Notes under the pieces: generated by a model
Databases searched by the model: none
What the model was told of the DNA's origin: nothing
What the model saw: only the letters and a program-made list of their open reading frames with translations
Part shown: piece by piece, positions 17,815 through 64,000 of the stretch
How positions within the stretch are numbered: the first letter of the stretch is position 1
Layout: the number at the start of each line of letters is the position of its first letter
Translations under genes and position numbers: made by a program
Assembly (NCBI RefSeq): GCF_018350175.1
Contig: NC_058368.1
Span: 84,756,001 to 84,820,000 of the forward strand
Source: Felis catus
Taxonomy: Eukaryota
DNA length: 64,000 bases
Direction of reading: 5' to 3'

Positions 17815-18354
17815 GTAAGTCCTCTTGTTTGGAAAAACCATGGCTTCCATAATTAAATTATATCAATAAAGATGATCTGATTTTAATATGTTTTACATGT
17901 GTAACTCTTATATCAAGGACCTTGATTTTATATATTTAAAAAAAACTGATTTAACTCAGCTCCTAAGAATATTGACTATGCATGATATAAGGCAAAACAC
18001 AAACATAAATTACAAATTATGTAAAAAATATCCTCCTGCTCACATATGTTGCTGCCTGTGGTACAAAGACACACTTCATATTATTGTAATTTACCAAAAA
18101 TTTTTCATTATGTCAATCAATTAATGAATTAATTAATTCATTATGCCAATTAATAAAGGGTACTTATTTTGAAACTTTTAAAGAAAGAAAAAGTGGAAAA
18201 AGTTGAAATTAACTTTATGTCCACGTTAAAATATTTTGAAAATGGCAAATAAAATATTTGAAATAAGTTTTATCATTTTCAGATATGTAATTCAAATGGA
18301 GCACTGCAAATGATGAAAACTGTCATCTATTTCTTCATTTCCAGTTTGAAAATC

Positions 18355-19293
18355 ATGAAAAATGGGAACACCACCTCTGATTTCATTCTCCTAGGACTCT
18401 TTAACCACACAGGAACCCATCTATTTCTCTTTGCAATGGTTCTCACAATTGCCTTCGCCTCCCTAGTGGGAAATGCCCTCATGATTCTCCTGATTCACCA
18501 AGATGCCCGGCTCCACACACCCATGTACTTCCTACTGAGCCAACTCTCCCTCATGGACATGATGCTGGTCTCTACCATTGTGCCCAAAATGGCTACTAAC
18601 TACTTGACTGGAAAGATGTCCATCTCCCCTGCTGAGTGCGGGTTGCAGATATTCTTCCTTCTAACTTTAGGAGGGGGTGAGTGTTTCCTCTTAGCAGCCA
18701 TGTCCTATGACCGGTATGTGGCTGTTTGTCACCCACTGCGATACCCAGCCCTCATGAGCTGGCAATTATGCCTGAGAATGACTGTGGGGTCTTGGGTCCT
18801 GGGGGCAGTTGATGGGCTCATGCAGGCTGCTGCTACCCTGAGTTTTCCATTTTGCGATGCACATGAGATCAATCATTTCTTCTGTGAGGCCCCTACTCTG
18901 GTGGGTTTAGCTTGTGCCGACACGTTTGTCTTTGAGTATGTGATGTACGTATGCTGTGTGTTAATGCTCCTGGTCCCATTTTCTCTCATTCTGATTTCCT
19001 ATAGTCTCATCCTTGCTGCAGTTCTCCAGATGCATTCTAGAGAAGCCCGCAAAAAGCCTTTTGCCACCTGCTCCTCACATCTTTCTGTGGTGGGACTCTT
19101 TTATGGAGCTGCAATTTTTACCTATATGCAACCCAAATCCTACAGGTCAGCTCACCATGATAAAGTAGTGTCAGTGTTCTATACTATCTTCACCCCTGTA
19201 CTCAATCCCCTCATCTACAGTCTGAGAAACAGTGAAGTCAAGGGTGCCTTGAGAAAGTGTATGGGTCAGTGTTCTGCCTTAAGTCAGGGTTAA
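18355..19293 (+). CDS. Olfactory receptor, class II family 2 subfamily T (OR2T8/OR2T12/OR2T33-like), 312 aa, intact single coding exon
   Basis: N-glycosylation site [43 protein letters not shown] and [12 protein letters not shown] are all present. [11 protein letters not shown] and [16 protein letters not shown] are typical of the OR2T8/12/33 group. The start is placed at the Met after the splice acceptor, not at the ORF-track start 18310. Confidence 0.96.
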
Positions 19294-29702: not shown

Positions 29703-29742
<40 letters not shown>

Positions 29743-30042
29743 GGGATATTACTCAGCCATCAAAAATAATGAAATCTTACCATTTGCAATGATGTGGATT
29801 GAGATAGAATGCATTATGCAAGCAAAATAAGCCAGCCACAGAAAGGTAAACACAATATGATTTTACTCATATGTAGAATTTATAAAAGAAAACAGATGAA
29901 CACATTGGAAGGAGGAAATATAAGAGAAGGAAACAAACCACAAACTATTATTATTCTTAATAATAGATAAGAAACTGAGGCTGATGGAAGGAGGTTGGTG
30001 GGAGTAGAGATATGGGTGATGGGTATTAAAAAGGGCATTTGT

Positions 30043-30264: not shown

Positions 30265-32552
30265 TAAAAAGGGCATTTGTGAGGAGCACTGGGTGTTGTT
30301 ACATATGACATAGTGTTGAATTACACTCTTATTCCTGAAATCAATATTGCATTCTATGTTAACTAAAATTTAAATGTTAAAAAATAATAGCAAATAAAAT
30401 AAATAAATGAATAAATACATATAAAAAATCCTAGTATAAATTGAAGAAAAAAGAAAATGAAAAATAAAACACCCAAAAGCACTGACTCAGAAAACATGAG
30501 AGGTGATTTTTGCAAATTTTTATATGCAGTGGAGCTCAAATTCTGGTTTTAGAAGTCTGTGCCATTGCTGGGTTTCACACTGGCAAGCATAGTTGTACAC
30601 CTGAGTAGGAAAGCAGTTTCCCAGGAGCAGACAACATGTTTTGAGGATCCCCTGAATCACATTAGAAGAAAATTCCCCTTCCTGGAGTGCATTTGTGAGA
30701 GATGGCACTGCTTGTCAAGGGATAAAAGAGCCGTTTGGTGCCATTAAGCTGCTTCTTTCTTTAGCATAGGCACAGAATGGCATACTGAGGGCAGCTAACC
30801 TGGATTCTGGCTTTTTGCTGAACTTTATCATGAGCCCCAAGCCCCTGCAATCATGCCACTGTCCACTGGGGACAAACTGGCACTAGCCTCAGTGCAGTGA
30901 GAACTACCTCCTGCCAGAAGATCAATGTGGTTCTGACTCATGCCAGGTCTTTAAAATGTGGAGTTTTGAAACCCAGCTGGTGTACCTGAGATAAAATATG
31001 GAGCACTGTTTCACCAGATGCTCAGATGGTTCAGACACAGGGTGAAGGTAGGGATCTGAAAGAAACCTGGGCCACACGAGGGGAGACTGACCCTTCTGTG
31101 AGAGCTTTCTAAATAGCAATGGCAGGAACTTCCCTCTCTTGGGACTGACTCCATTTTTATGCCCTGCAAATCAGCATAAACTGACTTCAGTGAGCAACAC
31201 TGCACCCACAGTGGATGCTAGATCTGCTTAAACCAACCCTACCCCTCTGCATTCTGAAGGTGCTTTTTTATGAGGGCAAGTGTGTCTGAGATCCAGAGCA
31301 GCACTGGGCCCCTTCCTCAGAAAGCCAGCACAAATACCCATGTTGCACCAAGTATGCTGACTATTAACTGCTGCAAATCTTCAGATCTAGTGGATATTGG
31401 ATCTAGCCTTTTTTTAACAAACAGGCCAAAGCACATCACATTAAAATTTGCCACACACTGGACAAGGCCCAAGAAGTCACCACTATATGCAAAGGGAAAC
31501 TGTGCAGAGGACCGACCTGAAGGAAAGAGCAGCCAAAACACAATAGCAGAGTGCACACAGCATACACCAGAAACACTTCTTGAAATACCAGGCCATTGGT
31601 GAGTATATGACATTTCTTAATATAGCCATTACTCTCAGGAGCAAGAGGCAAAACAAGATTTCCTAATACAGAGAAAACAGACACTTGCAAACAATGACAA
31701 GATAGAGGAATTTATCCCAGTAAAAAGAACAGAAGAGTTAATGGCCAGAGGATTAATCAAAATAGAGGTAAGTAAAATGTCTGAAATAGAGTTTAAAACA
31801 ATAATCATAAGGATACTAGCTGGGCTTAAGAAAAACATAGAAGACACAAGGGAGTTCAGAGATAAAAGACCTAAAAACTAGTCAGTGTAAAATAAACAAT
31901 GCTACAACTAAGATATGAAACCAACTAGTGGTAATGACCACAAGGCTGGAAGAATCAGAGGAATGAGTAAGTAATATAGAAGATAAAATTATGGAAAATA
32001 ATAAAACTGGAAAGTGGAAAAGAAAAATCTTGGATCACAAATGTAGGCTTAGGGAACTCAGCAACTCCATAAAGCATGATAACATTCATACAATAGGAAT
32101 CCTAGAAGAAGATGGGGGAAAGGGGGAAAGTACTATTTGAGCAAATTATAGCTGAAAACTTCCCTAATCTGAGGAAGGAAACTAACATCCAAATCCAGGA
32201 TGCACAAATAACTCCCATCTGCATCAACAATACCAGGCCAATACCAAGACATGTCATAATAAAATTTTCAAAATACAGAAATGGAGAAAACATCCTGAGA
32301 GCAGGAAGGAAATAGAAATCCCCTTCCAAAGAAAGACCCATAATGCTAGCTTCAGACTTAACAGTAGAAACTTGGTAGGCCAGAAGGGAATGGCATGATA
32401 TATTCAATGAACTGAATCATAAAAATATGCAGCCAGTAGTACTGTATCCAGCAATGCTATTATTCATAATAGATGGAGAGATGTAGAGTTTCCCAGACAA
32501 ACAAAATCCAAAGCATTTCATTACCATTGAACTAGACCTGCAAGTCATTTTA

Positions 32553-33292
32553 TTTTATTTTATTTTATTTTTATATGAAATTTATTGACAAATTGGTTTC
32601 CATACAACACCCAGTGCTCATCCCAAAAGGTGCCCTCCTCAATACCCATCACCCACCCTCTCCTCCCTCCCACGCCCACACTCTTCCAAAACTCAATCAG
32701 GAGGAAATAGAAAGCTTGAACAGACCCATAACCAGCAAAGAAATTGAATCGGTTATCAAAAATCTCCCAACAAATAAGAGTCCAGGACCAGATGGCTTCC
32801 CAGGGGAGTTCTACCAGACGTTTAAAGCAGAGATAATACCTATCCTTCTCAAGCTATTCCAAGAAATAGAAAGGGAAGGAAAACTTCCAGACTCATTCTA
32901 TGAAGCCAGTATTACTTTGATTCCTAAACCAGACAGAGACCCAGTAAAAAAAGAGAACTACAGGCCAATATCCCTGATGAATATGGATGCAAAAATTCTC
33001 AATAAGATACTAGCAAATCGAATTCAACGGCATATAAAAAGAATTATTCACCATGATCAAGTGGGATTCATTCCTGGGATGCAGGGCTGGTTCAACATTT
33101 GCAAATCAATCAACGGGATACATCACATTAACAAAAAAAAAAAAAAAAGAGAAGAACCATATGATCCTGTCAATCGATGCAGAAAAGGCCTTTGACAAAA
33201 TCCAGCACCCTTTCTTAATAAAAACCCTTGAGAAAGTTGGGATAGAAGGAACATACTTAAAGATCATAAAAGCCATTTATGAAAAGCCCACT
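32553..33292 (-). mobile_element. Young L1 with a 5' inversion (twin-priming structure)
   Basis: A (TTTTA)n tail and about 100 bp of antisense 3'UTR are joined at about 32673 to a + strand ORF2 segment (HTLPKL...IYEKPT). TSD tgcaagtcatttta at 32539 and 33293. Confidence 0.92.
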
Positions 33293-33350
33293 TGCAAGTC
33301 ATTTTAAAAGGGACTTTTTGAGTGGGAAACAAAGACAAAACAACAAAGCC

Positions 33351-52893: not shown

Positions 52894-53800
52894 ATGGAAA
52901 GAAGGATCAATAGAATCACTGGAACTGAATTTGTTCTTTTGGGGCCGTTTCACCATATCCACACCCCAAAGCTTCTTTTCAATCGTCTTCCTGTTTTTTC
53001 ATGCAGTCCTTGTTGGCAATGTTATAATGATGATTCTTATTTGGTTTGATTGTCGCCTCCATAGTCCTATGTATTTCCTTCTCAGTCAACTCTCCTTGAT
53101 GGATCTTTTATATAACTCTACTTTGGTCCCCAAGATAGCCATTGACATTATGTCTGGAAGAAACAGCATTTGCTATATTGGTTGTGGAACTCAGCGTTTC
53201 CTCTTCATGACTCTTGTGGGAACAGTGTCTTCTTCTGTCAGTAATGGCATAAGGCTGCTATATAGCTACATGCCATTCCCTCCATTACTCAGTACTCAAG
53301 TGTCCAATAGTCTGTGCATTCATGGCAACTGGCACATGGCTGAGTGCACTTCTCAATGCCTTTATCCATGTTTTCTATATTCTGAGTCTCCTTTACTGTG
53401 CTTCCAGGGAGAGACATCATTTCTTTTGTTGAGACCCCACCACTCCTGAAACTTGTTTGTGCTGACACTTCTCTTTATGAAAGTGGCCTTTTTGTCAGTG
53501 GTGTTCTTTCTCCTTTTTCCAATATCTGCCATCATGGCCTTATATGGTCAGATCGTCTCCACTGTTTTTGGATTAAGAGCAAACTTGGGGGCAACCTGTT
53601 CTTCCCATATGACTGTTGTTTCTTTCTACAATTGAACAGCCATCATCAAGTATTTTCTTGCCAAAGCTTATCACACTGCTTAGCAGGACAAAGTGGTCTC
53701 GATCTTCTACACTATCCTTACACCCATGCTCAACCACCTCATCTAAAGTCTACAAAACAAGGAGGTGGCTGGAGCTTTCAGGAAAGTCCTGGGAAGATAA
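52894..53800 (+). pseudogene. Olfactory receptor family 2 pseudogene (OR2AJ/OR2L/OR2AK-like)
   Basis: ATG at 52894 (MERRINRITGTEFVLLG), [40 protein letters not shown] and QDKVVSIFYTILTPMLNHLI*SLQNKEV. It has several frameshifts, in-frame stops (MAYDRY reads MA*GCY) and a short deletion before TM6. Confidence 0.93.
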
Positions 53801-54855: not shown

Positions 54856-55129
54856 ATACTTATACATATATATTTTTCTGTAGAGCACCCCATTTCTTTC
54901 TTTTTTTTTTATATGAAATTTATTGACAAATTAGTTTCCATACAACACCCAGTGCTCATCCCAAAAGGTGCCCTCCTCAATACCCATCACCCAACCTCTC
55001 CTCCCTCCCACCCCCCATCAACCCTCAGTTTGTTCTCAGTTTTTAACAGTCTCTTATGCTTTGGCTCTCTCCCACTCTAACCTGTTTTTTTTTTTTCCTT
55101 CCCCTCCCCCATGGGTTCCTGTTAATTTC

Positions 55130-58100
55130 TCAGGGTCCACATAAGAGTGAAACCATATGGTATCTGTCTTTCTCTGTATGGCTTATTTCACTTAGCATCA
55201 CACTCTCCAGTTCCATCCACGTTGCTACAAAAGGCCATATTTCATTTTTTCTCATTGCCACGTAATATTCCATTGTGTATATAAACCACAATTTCTTTAT
55301 CCATTCATCAGTTGATGGACATTTAGGCTCTTTCCATAATTTGGCTATTGTTGAGAGTGCTGCTATGAACATTGGGGTACAAGTGGCCCTATGCATCAGT
55401 ACTCCTGTATCCCTTGGATAAATTCCTAGCAGTGCCATTGCTGGGTCATAGGGTAGGTCTATTTTTAATTTTCTGAGGAACCTCCACACTGCTTTCCAGA
55501 GCGGCTGCACCAATTTGCATTCCCACCAACAGTGCAAGAGGGTTCCCGTTTCTCCACATTCTCTCCAGCATCTAGAGTCTCCTGATTTGTTCATTTTGGC
55601 CACTCTGACTGGCGTGAGGTGATACCTGAGTGTGGTTTTGATTTGTATTTCCCTGATAAGGAGCGACGCTAAACATCTTTTCATGTGCCTGTTGGCCATC
55701 CGGATGTCTTCTTTAGAGAAGTGTCTATTCATGTTTTCTGCCCATTTCTTCACTGGGTTATTTGTTTTTCGGGTGTGGAGTTTGGTGAGCTCTTTATAGA
55801 TTTTGGATACTAGCCCTTTGTCCGATATGTCATTTGCGAATATCTTTTCCCATTCCGTTGGTTGCCTTTTAGTTTTGTTGGTTGTTTCCTTTGCTGTGCA
55901 GAAGCTTTTTATTTTCATAAGGTCCCAGTAATTCACCTTTGCTTTTAATTCCCTTGCCTTTGGGGATGTGTCGAGTAAGAGATTGCTCCGGCTGAGGTCA
56001 GAGAGGTCTTTTCCTGCTTTCTCCTCTAAGGTTTTGATGGTTTCCTGTCTCACATTTAGGTCCTTTATCCATTTGGAGTTTATTTTTGTGAATGGTGTGA
56101 GAAAGTGGTCTAGTTTCAACCTTCTGCATGTTGCTGCCCAGTTCTCCCAGCACCATTTGTTAAAGAGGCTGTCTTTTTTCCATTGGATGTTCTTTCCTGC
56201 TTTGTCAAAGATGAGTTGGCCATACGTTTGTGGGTCTAGTTCTGGGGTTTCTATTCTATTCCATTGGTCTATGTGTCTGTTTCTGTGTCAATACCATGCT
56301 GTCTTGATGATGACAGCTTTGTAGTAGAGGCTAAAGTCTGGGATTGTGATGCCTCCTGCTTTGGTCTTCTTCTTCAAAATTCCTTTGGCTATTCAGGGCC
56401 TTTTGTGGTTCCATATGAATTTTAGGATTGCTTGTTCTAGTTTCGAGAAGAATGCTGGTGCAATTTTGATTGGGATTGCATTGAATGTGTAGATAGCTTT
56501 GGGTAGTATTGACATTTTGACAAAATTTATTTTTCCAATCCATGAGCAGGGAATGTCTTTCCATTTCTTTAAATCTTCAATTTCCTTCATAAGCTTTCTA
56601 TAGTTTTCAGCATACAGATCCTTTACATCTTTGGTTAGATTTATTCCTAGGTATTTTATGCTTCTTGGTGCAATTGTGAATGGGATCAGTTTCTTTATTT
56701 GTCTTTCTGTTGCTTCATTGTTAGTGTATAAGAATGCAACTGATTTCTGTACATTGATTTTGTATCCTGAAACTTTGCTGAATTCCTGTATCAGTTCTAG
56801 TAGACTTTTGGTGGAGTCTGTCGGATTTTCCATGTATAATATCATGTCATCTGCAAAAAGCGAAAGCTTGACTTCATCTTTGCCAATTTTGATGCCTTTG
56901 ATTTCCTTTTGTTGTCTGATTGCTGATGCTAGAACTTCCAGCACTATGTTAAACAGCAGCGGTGAGAGTGGGCATCCTTGTCGTGTTCCTAATCTCAGGG
57001 AAAAAGCTCTCAGTTTTTCCCCGTTGAGGATGATGTTAGCTGTGGGCTTTTCATAAATGGCTTTTATGATCTTTAAGTATGTTCCTTCTATCCCGACTTT
57101 CTCAAGGGCTTTTATTAAGAAAGGGTGCTGGATTTTGTCAAAGGCCTTTTCTGCATCGATTGACAGGATCATATGGTTCTTCTCTTTTTTTTTGTTAATG
57201 TGATGTATCAAGTTGATTGATTTGCGAATGTTGAACCAGCCCTGCATCCCAGGAATGAATCCCACTTGATCATGGTGAATAATTCTTTTTATATGCCGTT
57301 GAATTCGATTTGCTAGTATCTTATTGAGAATTTTTGCATCCATATTCATCAGGGATATTGGCCTGTAGTTCTCTTTTTTTTACTGGGTCTCTGTCTGGTT
57401 TAGGAACCAAAGTAATACTGGCTTCATAGAATGAGTCTGGAAGTTTTCCTTCCCTTTCTATTTCTTGGAATAGCTTGAGAAGGATAGGTATTATCTCTGC
57501 TTTAAACGTCTGGTAGAACTCCCCTGGGAAGCCATCTGGTCCTGGACTCTTATTTGTTGGGAGATTTTTGATAACCGATTCAATTTCTTCACTGGTTATG
57601 GGTCTGTTCAAGCTTTCTATTTCCTCCTGATTGAGTTTTGGAAGAGTGTGGGTGTTCAGGAATTTGTCCATTTCTTCCAGGTTGTCCAATTTGTTGGCAT
57701 ATAATTTTTCATAGTATTCCCTGATAATTGTTTGTATCTCTGAGGGATTGGTTGTAATCATTCCATTTTCATTCATGATTTTATCTATTTGGGTCATTTC
57801 CCTTTTCTTTTTGAGAAGCCTGGCTAGAGGTTTGTCAATTTTGTTTATTTTTTCAAAAAACCAACTCTTGGTTTCGTTGATCTGCTCTACAGTTTTTTTA
57901 GATTCTATATTGTTTATTTCTGCTCTGATCTTTATTATTTCTCTTCTTCTGCTGGGTTTAGGCTGCCTTTGCTGTTCTGCTTCTAGTTCCTTCAGGTGTG
58001 CTGTTAGATTTTGTATTTGGGATTTTTCTTGTTTCTTGAGATAGGCCTGGATTGCAATGTATTTTCCTCTCAGGACTGCCTTCGCTGCGTCCCAAAGCAT

Positions 58101-58952
58101 TTGGATTGTTGTATTTTCATTTTCGTTTGTTTCCATATATTTTTTAATTTCTTCTCTAATTGCCTGGTTGACCCACTCATTCGTTAGTAGGGTGTTCTTT
58201 AACCTCCATGCCTTTGGAGGTTTTCCAGACTTTTTTCTGTGGTTGATTTCAAGCTTCATAGCATTGTGGTCTGAAAGTATGCATGGTATAATTTCAATTC
58301 TTGTAAACTTATGAAGGGCTGTTTTGTGACCCAGTATATGATCTATCTTGGAGAATGTTCCATGTGCACTCGAGAAGAAAGTATATTCTGTTGCTTTGGG
58401 ATGCAGCGTTCTAAATATATCTGTCAAGTCCATCTGATCCAATGTCTCATTCAGGGCCCTTGTTTCTTTATTGACCGTGTGTCTAGATGATCTGTCCATT
58501 TCTGTAAGTGGGGTGTTAAAGTCCCCTGCAATTACCACATTCTTATCAATAAGGTTTCTTATGTTTATGAGTAATTGTTTTATATATTTGGGGGCTCCGG
58601 TATTCGGCGCATAGACATTTATAATTGTTAGCTCTTCCTGATGGATAGACCTTGTAACTGTTATATAATGTCCTTCTTCATCTCTTGTTACAGCCTTTAA
58701 TTTAAAGTCTAGTTTGTCTGATATAAGTATGGCTACTCCAGCTTTCTTTTGGCTTCCAGTCGCATGATAAATAGTTCTCCATCCCCTCACTCTCAATCTA
58801 AAGGTGTCCTCAGGTCTAAAATGAGTCTCTTGTAGACAGCAAATAGATGGGTCTTGTTTTTTTATCCATTCTGATACCCTATGTCTTTTGGTTGGTGCAT
58901 TTAATCCATTTACATTCAGTGTTATTATAGAAAGATACGGGTTGAGAGTCAT
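55130..58952 (-). pseudogene. L1 ORF2p (APE endonuclease, reverse transcriptase, CCHC), inactivated
   Basis: [25 protein letters not shown] and FADD motifs are present. Lesions: a +1 frameshift in an 8-A run (about 57374-57381; 7 A in the copy at 32946), a TGA at 56393-56395 (likely CGA>TGA) and a TGG>TGA at about 56288. Confidence 0.93.
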
Positions 58953-59002
58953 TGTGATGTCTGTATGTTTTATGCTTGTAGTGATGTCTCTGCGACTTTG
59001 TC

Positions 59003-59896
59003 TCACAGGGTCCCCCTTAGGATCTCTTGTAGGGCTGGTTTAGTGGTGACAAATTCCTTCAGTTTTTGTTTGTTTGGGAAGACCTTTATCTCTCCTTCTA
59101 TTCTAAATGACAGACTTGCTGGGTAAAGGATTCTCGGCTGCATATTTTTTCTGTCTAGCACCCTGAAAATCTCGTGCCAATTCTTTCTGGCCTGCCAAGT
59201 TTCAAAAGAGAGATCAGTCACGAGTCTTATAGGTCTCCCTTTATATGTGAGGGCACGTTTACCCCTTGCTGCTTTCAGAATTTTCTCTTTATCCTTGTAT
59301 TTTGCCAGTTTCACTATGATATGTCTTGCAGAAGATCGATTCAAGTTACGTCTGAAGGGAGTTCTCTGTGCCTCTTGGATTTCAATGCCTTTTTCCTTCC
59401 CCAGTTCAGGGAAGTTCTCAGCTATTATTTCTTCAAGTACCCCTTCAGCACCTTTCCCTCTCTCTTCCTCCTCTGGGATACCAATTATGCGTATATTATT
59501 TATTTTTAGTGTATCACTTAGTTCTCTAATTTTCCCCTCATACTCCTGGATTTTTTTATCTCTCTTTTTCTCAGCTTCCTCTTTTTCCATAACTTTATCT
59601 TCTAGTTCACCTATTCTCTCCTCTGCCTCTTCAAGCCGAGCTGTGGTGGTTTTCATTTTGTTATGCATTTCGTTTAAAGCGTTTTTCAGCTCCTCGTGAC
59701 TGTTCCTTAGTCCCTTGATCTCTGTAGCAAGAGATTCTCTGCTGTCCTGTATACTGTTTTCAAGCCCAGCGATTAATTTTATGACTATTATTCTAAATTC
59801 ACTTTCTGTTATATTATTTAAATCCTTTTTGATCAGCTCATTAGCTGTTGTTATTTCCTGGAGATTCTTCTGAGGGGAATTCTTCCATTTGGTCAT
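59003..59896 (-). CDS. L1 ORF1p (coiled coil, RRM, CTD), open frame of about 297 aa from [10 protein letters not shown]
   Basis: [30 protein letters not shown] and YPASLSF motifs; no stops. Confidence 0.9.
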
Positions 59897-60824
59897 TTTG
59901 GATAGTCCCTGGCATGGTGAGGACCTGCAGGGCACTTCCCCTGTGCTGTGGTGTAGAACTGGAGTTGGTGGGTGGGGCTGCAGTCAGACCTGATGTCTGC
60001 CCCCAGCCCACAGCTGGGGCCACAGTCAGACTGGTGTGTGCCTTCTCTTCCCCTCTCCTAGGGGCGGGATTCACTGTGGGGTGGTGTGGCCTGTCTGGGT
60101 TACTTGCACACTGCCAGGCTTGTGATGCTGGGGATGTGGCGTATTAGCTAGGGTGGGTAGGCAAGGTGCACGGGGGCAGGAGGGGCAGGCTTAGATCGCT
60201 TCTCCTTAGGTGATCCACTTCAGGAGGGGCCCTGTGGCAGCGGGAGGGAGTCAGATCCGCTGCCGGAGGTTTGGCTCCGCAGAAGCACAGAGTTGGGTGT
60301 TTGGGCGGAGCGAGCAAGTTCCCTGGCAGGAACTGGTTCTCTTTGGGATTTTGGCTGGGGGATGGGTGGGGGAGATCGCGCTGGCGAGTGCCTTTGTTCC
60401 CCGCCAAACTGAGCTCTGTCGTCAGGGGGCTCAGCAGCTCTCCCTCCCTTTGTCCTCCAGCCTTCCCGCTTTCCGAGCAGAGCTGTTAACTTATGACCTC
60501 CCAGACGCTAAGTCGCGCTTATTGTCGGAACACAGTCCGTCAGGCCCCTCCGCTTTTGCAAGCCAGACTCGGGGGCTCTGCTTGGCTGGCTAGCCGCCCC
60601 TCCGCCCGGCTCCCTCCCGCCAGTCCGTGGAGCGCGCACCGCCTAGCCGCCCTTCCTACCCTCTTCCGTGGGCCTCTCGTCTGCGTTTGGCTCCGGCGAC
60701 TCCGTTCTGCTAATCCTCTGGCGGTTTTCTGGGTTATTTAGGCAGGTGTAGGTGGAATCTAAGTGATCAGCAGGACGCGCGGTGAGCCCAGCGTCCTCCT
60801 AAGCCGCCATCTTGCCGCTTCTCC

Positions 60825-63800
60825 AGGGCACTAACCTTGACACTACACATGATTATGGCCCTAACCAGCCCAAATACTGTCTTTAAAAGGGCAACAGATG
60901 AAGGACACATTAAGGTTGCCAGATTACTCAGTCAAGAGCACAGAAGGGAACCAAGCCGATTTCTCTGAGCAGTATCGTGATGGAGAGTAGATTCAGAACA
61001 AAAGCATCACCCTCACAGACACCATCAATGTAATATCTGAACATGATCCCTAAACCTGACCTTCACCTAAACGCTCAAACTCAAGTCAGCCCACCAGGGA
61101 AATCTCAAAGTTTCAGGTGGATAGGCTCCTGCCATCTCCTGAGCCATAACTGAAACCTTGCCATGGTTCTATCACTACATGGTCCTGATTCATGTATCTG
61201 AGGACACAGTGGATGTGGGACTCTTGACATATGCCAGATTACTCAGGCAGGAATACAGAAAGGAGCCATGCCATTTGCAATGACCAGGATGGAGCATGGA
61301 GTATTATTTTGAGCAAAAACCTCACACAAACCCACACCATCAGCCTAGTCCCTGAACATGAACCCGATGCCCAACTATCACTGTAACACATGCTCTCAAT
61401 TAAGACCTCTGGGGAGGTGTCTGCATTGCCAGTGGATAGGCCCCTACCATCTCCTGGGCCTGAATCCTAACCCAGACATGTCTCCAGGCCAAGATTGGCC
61501 CAAATCATAAGCATATGGAAAAGAAAACAAACAAACAAACAAACAAACAAACATGTGGAACACATGAGGACATCAGATCATTGAACAGGGAACAGAGAAG
61601 TAAACCTTGACATTTGCCACTCCCAGAATGAAGCCACAGAGTATGATTCTGAGTGAAAACTTCAACCTTCTCCACACTATCAATCAGCCTAGCCCCTGAA
61701 CACGTAATCTAAGCCTGGCCCTCACCCTAAACCTTGCCCTCACTCAAGTCAGCCCTCCAGGGAGGTCTCTGCCCTGATGGCAGATAGTCTCCTAACATAT
61801 CCAGGATCCTAACCCAAACCCTAGCCAAGGCTCTGGCCCTATCCAGGCCCAAATCCTAGGTTAGAAGAAACAACTGATTTGGGAAACATGAACAATGCCA
61901 GATTACTCAGCCAGAAAAACAAAAGGGACCATGACATTTGCAACGACCTCAATGAAGCTAGAGAGTAGATTACAATGGAAAACTTTGCCCTCCCCTACAT
62001 AACCAGCCTTGACCATGAACATGAATCCAAAGCCTGACCCTCACTTTAGCCCTTGCCTTCCATTCAATTATCCACTGAGGTCTCCTCACTGCAAATGGAT
62101 AGGCCCCTAGTATCTCCTGGGTCCTAACCCTAACCTTAATCATGGCTCTGGCCAAACCATGCCTGAATCCTTGGTCTGAGGAAACAAGGATGAACGACAT
62201 ATGCATGATGCCAGATTACTCAGCCAGATACACAGAAAATTTCCATTTGCATGAACCAGGTGGATGTGGAGAGTAGAATAGAATGGGAAATCTCACCGAA
62301 ATCCAAACCATCCGCCTAGCCCCTGAACCTGAAAGCTAATCTGGATACTCATCCTAATACCAACTCAAATAAGTGCTCCAGGAATGTCTCTGTCCTTCCA
62401 GGGTATAGGATCCTAGCCTCTCTTGGACACTAAACCTAAGCCTAGGTATAGCTATGACCATATCAGGGACCAAACCCTAGATCTGAGGGAATAACCTAAG
62501 TGAAACACATGAAGGACATTAGGTTACTCAGCTAGAACAGAGAAGGGTTCTATGCTCTTGCAAACACCCAGAACTGGAGATAAGATTAGGATTAAAAATC
62601 ACACCCCAACCAACACAATCAGCCTGATTCTGGAAATTGAATCCAACCCTAACCCTCACTCTAACAATTGTCCTCAACTCAGGCCTCCTGGAAGGTCTCC
62701 ATACTGCTGGCAGATAGACCCCTAGCATCCTCTTGGCCCAATCCTTAACTCCAGCTCTGCTGTAGCATACCTGGGCTTGAAAGCTAGATCTGAGAAAACC
62801 ACACGTGAGGGACAAATGAACAAAGCCAAACTCCTCAACCTGGAACACACAAGTGAAGCATGTCCTTGGAAGTGACTGGGAGGGAGTTGGAAAATAGATT
62901 AGGGCTGAAAATATGACCCAAACATATGTATCCTAGCCCCTGGACCTGAAACTGAACCCTAAGCCTTACTCTCATCCTAACAAACACTCACCCTTCCACC
63001 CAAATCTCCCAGGAGGCCAGCAAACTATAAACTGATAGGCCCCTATATCTTGCAGGTACTAACCCTAACCCTAAACATGACCCTGGAACTACCTGGGCCT
63101 GCATCCTAGGTCTGAGGTAAAAATTGATTTGATACACATGAGTGGACCTGAATTATTTAGTGAGGAACACTGAAGTTATGCATACCATTTACAAGAGCAG
63201 AGTGGACCTGGAAATCACGACCGTGAGCAAAAAACGAACCATAACCCACAAAATCACATGGACTCTGAGCACAAAACCTAAGCCTGACCCACACCCTAAC
63301 ATGGGCTCTCAACCCATACATCAGAGGATATTACCTCTCTACTGGCAGATAGGCACCTGCCATCTCCCAGGAACAAACCCTAACCCTAGCCATGGCCCTG
63401 GCCCTAGCCCTAAATGGGTACACATCCCAGGTCTGAATAAGGAATAGTTTTGGACACATGACCAGAGCAGAATTATTTAGCGAGGAACCCAGAATTCCAG
63501 ATTTCCAGGAATGGGGTGAACATGGACAACATTATTTGGAGCAAATAATTAGCTGGAACACACAAAATAAGCAGGCCCCTGACCCCCAATCTAATGCTTT
63601 AGCCACATCCTAACACTTGCCATTAACTCAACATTCTATGGACAGCAACACACTAATGGCTGATAGGTCCCTGCCATCTCCCAGGGCTTAACCTTAACCC
63701 TAGATCTGTGGAAAAAAATGAATTTAGGGCATATGACTGGCCCAGAATTATTCAGCAGGGACCCAGAAGTTAACCATGCAGTTTACATGACTGGGATGGA

Positions 63801-64000
63801 TGGGGAACATTATTGTAAGCAATATCAAACCATAACCCAAACAATGAACCAGACCCTGGGCCAAAAACCTGAGCGTGACCCACACCCAAACACTTGCCCT
63901 CAATTTAGCCCTCCAAGAAGGTCACCAGACTACTGGTGGATAGGCCCCTGCCACCTCTCAGGACCTAACACTAACCCAAGCCATGGTCCAGCCCTAAATG
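60825..64000. repeat. Diverged tandem (satellite-like) array with a period of about 315 bp, about 10 units, running off the window end
   Basis: The anchor (g/a)atta(c/t)tcag recurs at about 60922, 61237, 61576, 61901, 62214, 62522, 62829, 63151, 63471 and 63746. A second anchor, gataggccc, recurs with the same period. TAACCC-like hexamers occur throughout. Confidence 0.93.

Follow-up and report, generated by a model that had tools for sequence, protein, structure and literature searches.

The window, the whole 64,000-nucleotide stretch of Felis catus DNA analyzed here, is an L1-rich olfactory receptor cluster. An open olfactory receptor frame occupies positions 18262 to 19293 (Pfam 7tm_4, E = 5e-49), and a frameshifted olfactory-receptor-like sequence at about 52950 to 53800 lies immediately left of a young full-length L1 on the minus strand (54890 to 60824). 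This L1 has an open ORF1 (59003 to 59983) and an ORF2 in pieces, and its 5' end adjoins a tandem array that fills the rest of the window. Around the L1, no target-site duplication of at least 6 bp was found, and no array sequence continues beyond its far end; these features could reflect either a deletion that accompanied insertion or recombination between a pair of L1 copies. An older L1 carries an insert of about 750 bp (32539 to 33305), flanked by 13-bp direct repeats and composed of a short antisense L1 3' end and a sense mid-ORF2 piece. The insert resembles a 5'-inverted insertion that has lost a large internal portion.

The tandem array

The array spans positions 60825 to 64000 on the plus strand and consists of ten degenerate head-to-tail units of about 314 bp and a partial eleventh. 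Successive units, measured in register, are spaced by 315, 340, 324, 313, 308, 307, 322, 320, and 275 bp (mean 313.8, range 275 to 340 bp), which agrees to within 1 bp with the anchor spacings of the original prediction. A profile of the ten units, which are its own training set, recovers each of them at E ≤ 1e-60 and detects the partial eleventh at 63939 to 63998 (E = 5e-8). Pairwise identity between units averages only 0.59 (range 0.50 to 0.70), identity to the 316-bp consensus is 0.68 to 0.78, and the Kimura distance among units is about 0.32, alignment noise included. Judged by this divergence, the units are old. Tandem Repeats Finder, proposed with the original prediction as a check, does not report the array in its output. 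GC content is 0.46 across the array and 0.54 in the consensus, with a CpG observed/expected ratio of 0.09 in the array.

The left limit at 60825 is the point where the full-length minus-strand L1 ends, while the right side runs past the window edge. Contigs from three public runs reproduce the array sequence with 0 to 4 differences at a depth equal to each run's baseline, and they continue past 64000. The array is a decayed single-copy block. On the left, the contigs enter the adjacent L1 by just 24 to 27 letters, below the 31-letter bridging threshold, so that the junction is consistent with the contigs rather than formally bridged by them.

All units lie on the plus strand, and the ten main units each carry an L1-like core. 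Unit 0 (60825 to 61119) is without its first 20 or so bases and has its core at 60896 to 60995. Unit 1 (61120 to 61434; core 61211 to 61307) gives a blastn match to an L1 copy in the window at 29741 to 29827 (E = 2e-4). Unit 2 (61435 to 61782; core 61551 to 61650) is lengthened by an (AAAC)n run at 61525 to 61553. Units 3 (61783 to 62097; core 61875 to 61973), 4 (62098 to 62403; core 62188 to 62281), 5 (62404 to 62712; core 62496 to 62589), and 6 (62713 to 63033; core 62803 to 62902) follow. Unit 7 (63034 to 63347; core 63125 to 63223) holds the sole perfect 12-nt telomere run of the array, at 63060. Unit 8 (63348 to 63661; core 63445 to 63535) is followed by unit 9 (63662 to 63938; core 63720 to 63813), which has a deletion of about 40 bp, and by the start of unit 10 (63939 to 64000), cut by the window edge. 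Units 7 to 9 (63034 to 63938) are closer to one another (0.66 to 0.70) than the array mean, hinting at a later local duplication or homogenization.

L1 and telomere-like components of the unit

In each unit, 100 to 130 bp correspond to the C-terminal coding region of L1 ORF2. The original prediction had drawn this conclusion from a comparison of 61892 to 61962, within unit 3, with the L1 copy at 29738 to 29808, and its 49/71 identities were confirmed. The L1 ORF2 3'-end origin that it proposed also held up against shuffled controls with window L1 profiles. A profile built from the 3' ends of nine L1 copies in the window matches consensus positions 93 to 192 at 18.9 bits (E = 4e-8), compared with a maximum of 1.5 bits among 1000 shuffles of the whole consensus and 3.7 bits among 2000 local dinucleotide shuffles of the segment. 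The reversed consensus gave no match to this profile. Leaving out the L1 copy used in the original comparison gives a score of 15.4. A profile limited to four old copies scores 22.8 and one limited to four young copies 5.7, which places the L1 source of the array in an older L1 lineage.

The array and L1 are identical at 82 of 143 columns (overall range 57 to 69%), and pairwise alignments reach back to consensus position 62 in three of the nine window L1 copies. Conversely, a profile of the array's L1-like segment, its rows taken from a joint alignment with L1 and the cat satellite FA-SAT, finds six matches in the rest of the window, all of them L1 3' ends and all at one position in different L1 copies. 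The L1-like segment codes for the C-terminus of ORF2p, roughly residues 1221 to 1254 of the human protein as read off the alignment. It breaks off about 65 nt short of the stop codon and lacks both a 3' UTR and a tail. At the protein level, unit 3 had no match in Pfam or PDB or by blastp; as both L1 positive controls escaped Pfam too, the Pfam test is uninformative. The idea that the unit is a monomer of an L1 5' UTR array was rejected, as the unit profile matches the full-length L1 at the ORF2 3' end only; it likewise has no significant match at the other L1 5' ends in the window. A weak match (E = 0.03) of the array's right part to 30823 to 31153, upstream of an old L1 ORF1, was not reproduced by the unit profile.

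The telomere-like hexamers noted in the original prediction are present far in excess of chance. TAACCC occurs 11 times in the array against 1.7 ± 1.4 in 200 shuffles, and 111 9-mers lie within one mismatch of the telomere repeat against 6.9 ± 4.2 in shuffles, all of them on one strand. Each unit contains two degenerate TAACCC runs, at consensus positions 16 to 83 and 192 to 283, that together make up about 48% of the unit; about 50 bp are neither L1-like nor telomere-like. With a single perfect 12-nt run and hexamer runs that account for only about half of a complex unit, the array is not an interstitial telomeric sequence with an uninterrupted (TTAGGG)n tract, and this classification was rejected.

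Relationship to FA-SAT

FA-SAT is the cat's principal satellite (Fanning 1987, as cited in PMC5714208; GenBank X06372). The original prediction had excluded it because of its 483-bp period and had suggested a separate carnivore family. At positions 63364 to 63400 in unit 8, high-depth contigs and RNA reads are stacked whose variant letters match a FA-SAT primer listed in Table S1 of the PMC5714208 supplement. A motif scan yielded 66 loci, 62 from metagenomes and 4 from genomes. FA-SAT accounts for six of them, spread over four contigs; these have a 483-bp period, 60 to 64% GC, and published FA-SAT primers, and all six published FA-SAT oligos were located in loci L043 or L063 with 0 to 2 mismatches. 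The other 60 loci had no match, or short matches to telomere-like profile columns only, and were dropped. No non-cat copy was found among the 66 loci. An exact FA-SAT primer scan gave no matches in viral or metagenome contigs, and a shorter shared FA-SAT motif gave none in viral contigs.

Comparison with a FA-SAT consensus, built from five monomers with an anchor at either end, of which one contig supplied four, reveals that the whole unit, its L1-like segment and two telomere-like runs included, is colinear with FA-SAT. The doubled array consensus and the doubled FA-SAT agree at 289 of 423 ungapped columns (68%; score 281 versus 83 ± 12 in 100 shuffles). For the L1-like part alone (consensus 62 to 200), 87 of 124 columns agree (score 90.5 versus 26.8 ± 3.7 in 500 shuffles). 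FA-SAT itself has no direct match to any of four L1 profiles, while the array's L1-like profile matches FA-SAT monomers in five of the six FA-SAT loci, scoring as high as 18.4 bits, and is silent at the remaining 60 loci. The L1 origin of FA-SAT therefore rests on the array as a bridge. A primer-fit test (46 versus 28.7 ± 3.5, maximum 41 of 300 shuffles) was discarded when the alignment with FA-SAT revealed that its best match, B_Rev at consensus 82 to 101, was misplaced.

Despite this homology, and the complete and partial telomere motifs found in both, the array differs from FA-SAT in several respects. Its period is 313.8 rather than 483 bp, and it is without a 168-bp duplication present in FA-SAT. 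Its GC content is well below the 64% or so of FA-SAT, which has a CpG island, and its consensus contains 1 CpG where FA-SAT contains 31. Its units are 59% alike, compared with 84% for the FA-SAT monomers compared here and about 90% among monomers as cited in PMC5714208, and it is a single-copy block. By its alignment, the array clearly belongs to the same lineage as FA-SAT and is likely an older form of it. The original reading of an L1-fragment/telomere-like junction thus stands for the ORF2 3' end and the telomere-like make-up, but its separation from FA-SAT does not: the gap in period corresponds to the 168-bp internal duplication, and the supposed separate carnivore family is an old layer of the FA-SAT lineage.

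In the text of PMC5714208 consulted, the origin of FA-SAT is ascribed to telomeric motifs and L1 is treated as flanking sequence. Searches of the literature turned up no earlier account of L1 sequence within FA-SAT, nor of a precursor with a 315-bp unit. The family may nonetheless already bear a name in RepeatMasker, Dfam, or Repbase as a carnivore or SUBTEL-type satellite, perhaps with its L1 link noted, which would leave just the connection to this window as new; this is a real possibility, if not the one we favor, and it touches novelty rather than anatomy. In its favor, the family is old and appears to be multi-locus, and Fanning reportedly cloned a FA-SAT-related TAACCC-rich sequence from dog in 1987. 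The dog satellite Sat76CF, listed with a 312-bp period and no sequence (PMC3422206, Table S1), is a candidate canid relative and points in the same direction. However, no family of about 315 bp appears among the covered rows of the cat tandem-repeat catalogue (25 of 28 items and one further row), SUBTEL_sa has a period of 6 in the dog table (PMC3422206, Table S1), and the available text of two reviews of transposon-derived satellites (PMC9659126, PMC6947457) names cetacean and Phodopus cases, not FA-SAT. Four primers of dog CarSat1 / Sat1CF show no clear fit to the consensus (summed score 26 versus 19.8 ± 3.2, shuffle maximum 32), and the listed periods of 737 and 37 differ.

Proposed origin and decay of the unit

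FA-SAT contains an internal repeat in which positions 17 to 109 match positions 185 to 277 at an offset of 168 and 73% identity, and 483 − 168 = 315, the period of the array unit. The same repeat appears in the BLAST table of PMC5714208, where q189-275 matches q21-107, and goes undiscussed in the text of that paper examined. The duplication starts at the post-L1 hexamer run and extends as far as the beginning of the other one; because its limits fall at the two runs, misalignment between TAACCC runs would explain the duplication. Over 179 columns, the array has 17 private changes and the two internal copies of FA-SAT have 42 and 26. In the first 80 columns, the post-L1 run of the array matches the inner copy of FA-SAT at 21 sites versus 8.

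The L1-like segment allows this relationship to be polarized. Of its 138 columns, 45 are common to all three sequences, 35 are shared by array and FA-SAT, 34 by array and L1, 9 by FA-SAT and L1, and 15 differ in all. Seven of the nine window L1 copies served as the outgroup, in place of the actual source subfamily; with them, the array consensus agrees with L1 at more sites than FA-SAT does (34 versus 9, p = 2e-4). On the FA-SAT branch, 24 of 51 sites changed from AT to GC and 3 of 28 from GC to AT (p = 0.001), and the GC content of the segment climbs from 34% in L1 to 47% in the array and 63% in FA-SAT. GC-biased gene conversion during homogenization is a suggested cause of this gain. A CpG-decay test was ambiguous, with TG and CA at 27% of FA-SAT CpG sites against a 15% background, and a FastTree of the L1-like segment, weakly supported, was left out of the evidence.

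Could the 315-bp unit instead be a secondary product of an early 483-bp FA-SAT, shortened by recombination between its internal copies? Those copies are a natural substrate for such a deletion, and the identity between array and FA-SAT is near that between the copies themselves (68% and 73%). Nevertheless, this course of events is improbable. A deletion would retain the post-L1 segment of FA-SAT, whereas the array run matches the other copy, and the array is the closer of the two to L1. Furthermore, old 483-bp arrays in the PMC5714208 table, in the part available, are still 70 to 88% identical to the monomer, while the array units reach at most 69%. A deletion very soon after the duplication is conceivable, and it too would imply an ancestor of about 315 bp.

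We prefer the reading, and give it a probability of roughly 0.78, that the array is a decayed single-copy block of units of about 315 bp, each with a 3'-cut L1 ORF2 fragment between two telomere-like runs, and that it likely represents the ancestor of FA-SAT before its duplication. From the observed L1 match, telomere-like runs, full-unit colinearity, 168-bp internal repeat, and polarity, we infer the following history. A piece of an old L1 would have joined telomere repeats, most likely at a chromosome end. The junction unit would then have multiplied in tandem and reached several sites in subtelomeric and pericentromeric regions. Out-of-register crossing over between the two TAACCC runs of a unit would have duplicated about 168 bp and produced the 483-bp FA-SAT monomer. 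FA-SAT would have kept homogenizing and gained GC until its L1 ancestry was lost to recognition, while blocks such as 60825 to 64000 would have ceased homogenizing and decayed. A sense L1 cut at its 3' end and followed by C-strand TAACCC is the orientation expected if a telomeric G-overhang had primed reverse transcription. The mechanism of the first step is suggested by this orientation only, and an ordinary L1 insertion into telomeric repeats followed by deletion is possible as well.

The components of this history have counterparts in known systems. Endonuclease-independent L1 retrotransposition at mammalian chromosome ends was described for an engineered human L1 (Morrish et al. 2007; PMC2881922). 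There too, L1 is joined to telomere repeats, as is the tail-less sense piece of the cat array; however, that system is an engineered element in cell culture, whereas the cat case would be a natural event of ancient date whose product was amplified afterwards. Satellites derived from L1 have been described in cetaceans and Phodopus (PMC9659126, PMC6947457), and the array resembles them in its head-to-tail monomers and its significant L1 segment. The common cetacean satellite (Kapitonov et al. 1998, cited in PMC9659126 and PMC6947457) is likewise a mammalian monomer with a 3' part of L1, but it holds the 3'-terminal/3' UTR portion, while the cat array holds a C-terminal coding piece of ORF2 between telomere-like runs. 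PROsat of the rodent Phodopus roborovskii (Paço et al. 2015, cited in PMC9659126) also includes a small region of L1 ORF2. It is still 88% similar to L1, in contrast to 57 to 69% for the cat array, and in the likely amplified descendant of the latter L1 is no longer detectable.

The preferred reading gives the main cat satellite a testable origin, in a 315-bp L1/telomere junction unit that later acquired a 168-bp duplication. It means that GC-biased change can wholly erase a satellite's direct resemblance to its parent transposon while the link survives in decayed arrays, which suggests that using such arrays as a bridge is a general route to satellite origins. Relict 315-bp blocks may also serve as markers of old chromosome ends. 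According to a claim in PMC5714208, conservation of FA-SAT is about 95% between cats and animals as distant as flies and oysters. A monomer that contains a mammal-type L1 and is some 30% removed from its own older cat layer fits this claim poorly. In a bolder scenario, tentative and as a whole rather unlikely, FA-SAT, which makes up 1 to 2% of the cat genome, would go back to one telomere-primed insertion of L1 at a mammalian chromosome end of ancient date, re-capped by telomerase. Its 315-bp junction would have become a satellite, reached 483 bp by crossover between its own telomere runs, and been GC-converted until its source could not be recognized. Relict blocks would then mark old chromosome ends and centromeres, and the "frozen" conservation across Bilateria would be an artefact of contamination.

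Today the array is probably inert and without a function of its own. A role as a platform for telomere proteins, or as RNA transcribed from the adjacent L1 5' UTR, is very improbable, even though the array lies directly beyond the L1 5' end and FA-SAT transcription has been reported (PMC5714208, PMC7017282). Against it stand units that are only 59% alike and the presence of just one perfect 12-nt telomere run, and no Rfam match near threshold was found on the array. In one oligo-dT library, of which about 2% was read, 22 of 30 bins have zero depth, and two of the eight with depth lie over the L1. The array reads listed from it carry 4 to 5 or more differences and FA-SAT letters, and thus look like FA-SAT from elsewhere. 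One metatranscriptome run was rejected as expression, its cover of the array being even and DNA-like. Finally, the view that the L1 resemblance reflects chance or purine-rich composition in a purely telomere-derived family, as the FA-SAT literature assumes, is barely tenable: low identity, single-unit E-values of only about 1e-4, and the lack of a protein-level match or of a direct match between FA-SAT and L1 speak for it, but it is largely refuted by the shuffle controls, the silent reversed consensus, and the convergence of all six best outside matches on one spot of different L1 copies.

Related loci

Diverged units, arranged in the same order, also occur on other contigs whose depth is similar; these are possibly a continuation of the array itself. 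The supplementary BLAST table of PMC5714208, in the part that covers A1, A2, A3, and the head of B1 and gives coordinates only, contains weak matches to FA-SAT 2-110 that recur at spacings of about 310 bp. These spacings are 315, 294, 626, and 316 bp at the tip of A3, 621 and 1533 at 85 to 89 Mb on A1, 924 on A2, and 314 at the tip of A1. For four of these five loci in the covered part of the table, multiples of about 310 are a better fit than the spacings that 483-bp repeats allow; the single 314 agrees with either, since single spacings of 314 to 315 can also arise inside 483-bp arrays. On A2 and A3, these matches lie near old 483-bp arrays in the same table. The array was not identified with particular matches in it, as its units reach 68.6% where the table has 77.9%.

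Two of the FA-SAT loci (L063:1-515 and L065:1-737) are whole contigs of bacterial assemblies, from Vibrio aquaticus and Cellulomonas carbonis, that are cat FA-SAT over their full length, at 95% and 93% identity to the consensus. They are most likely contamination, and FA-SAT therefore travels as a contaminant.
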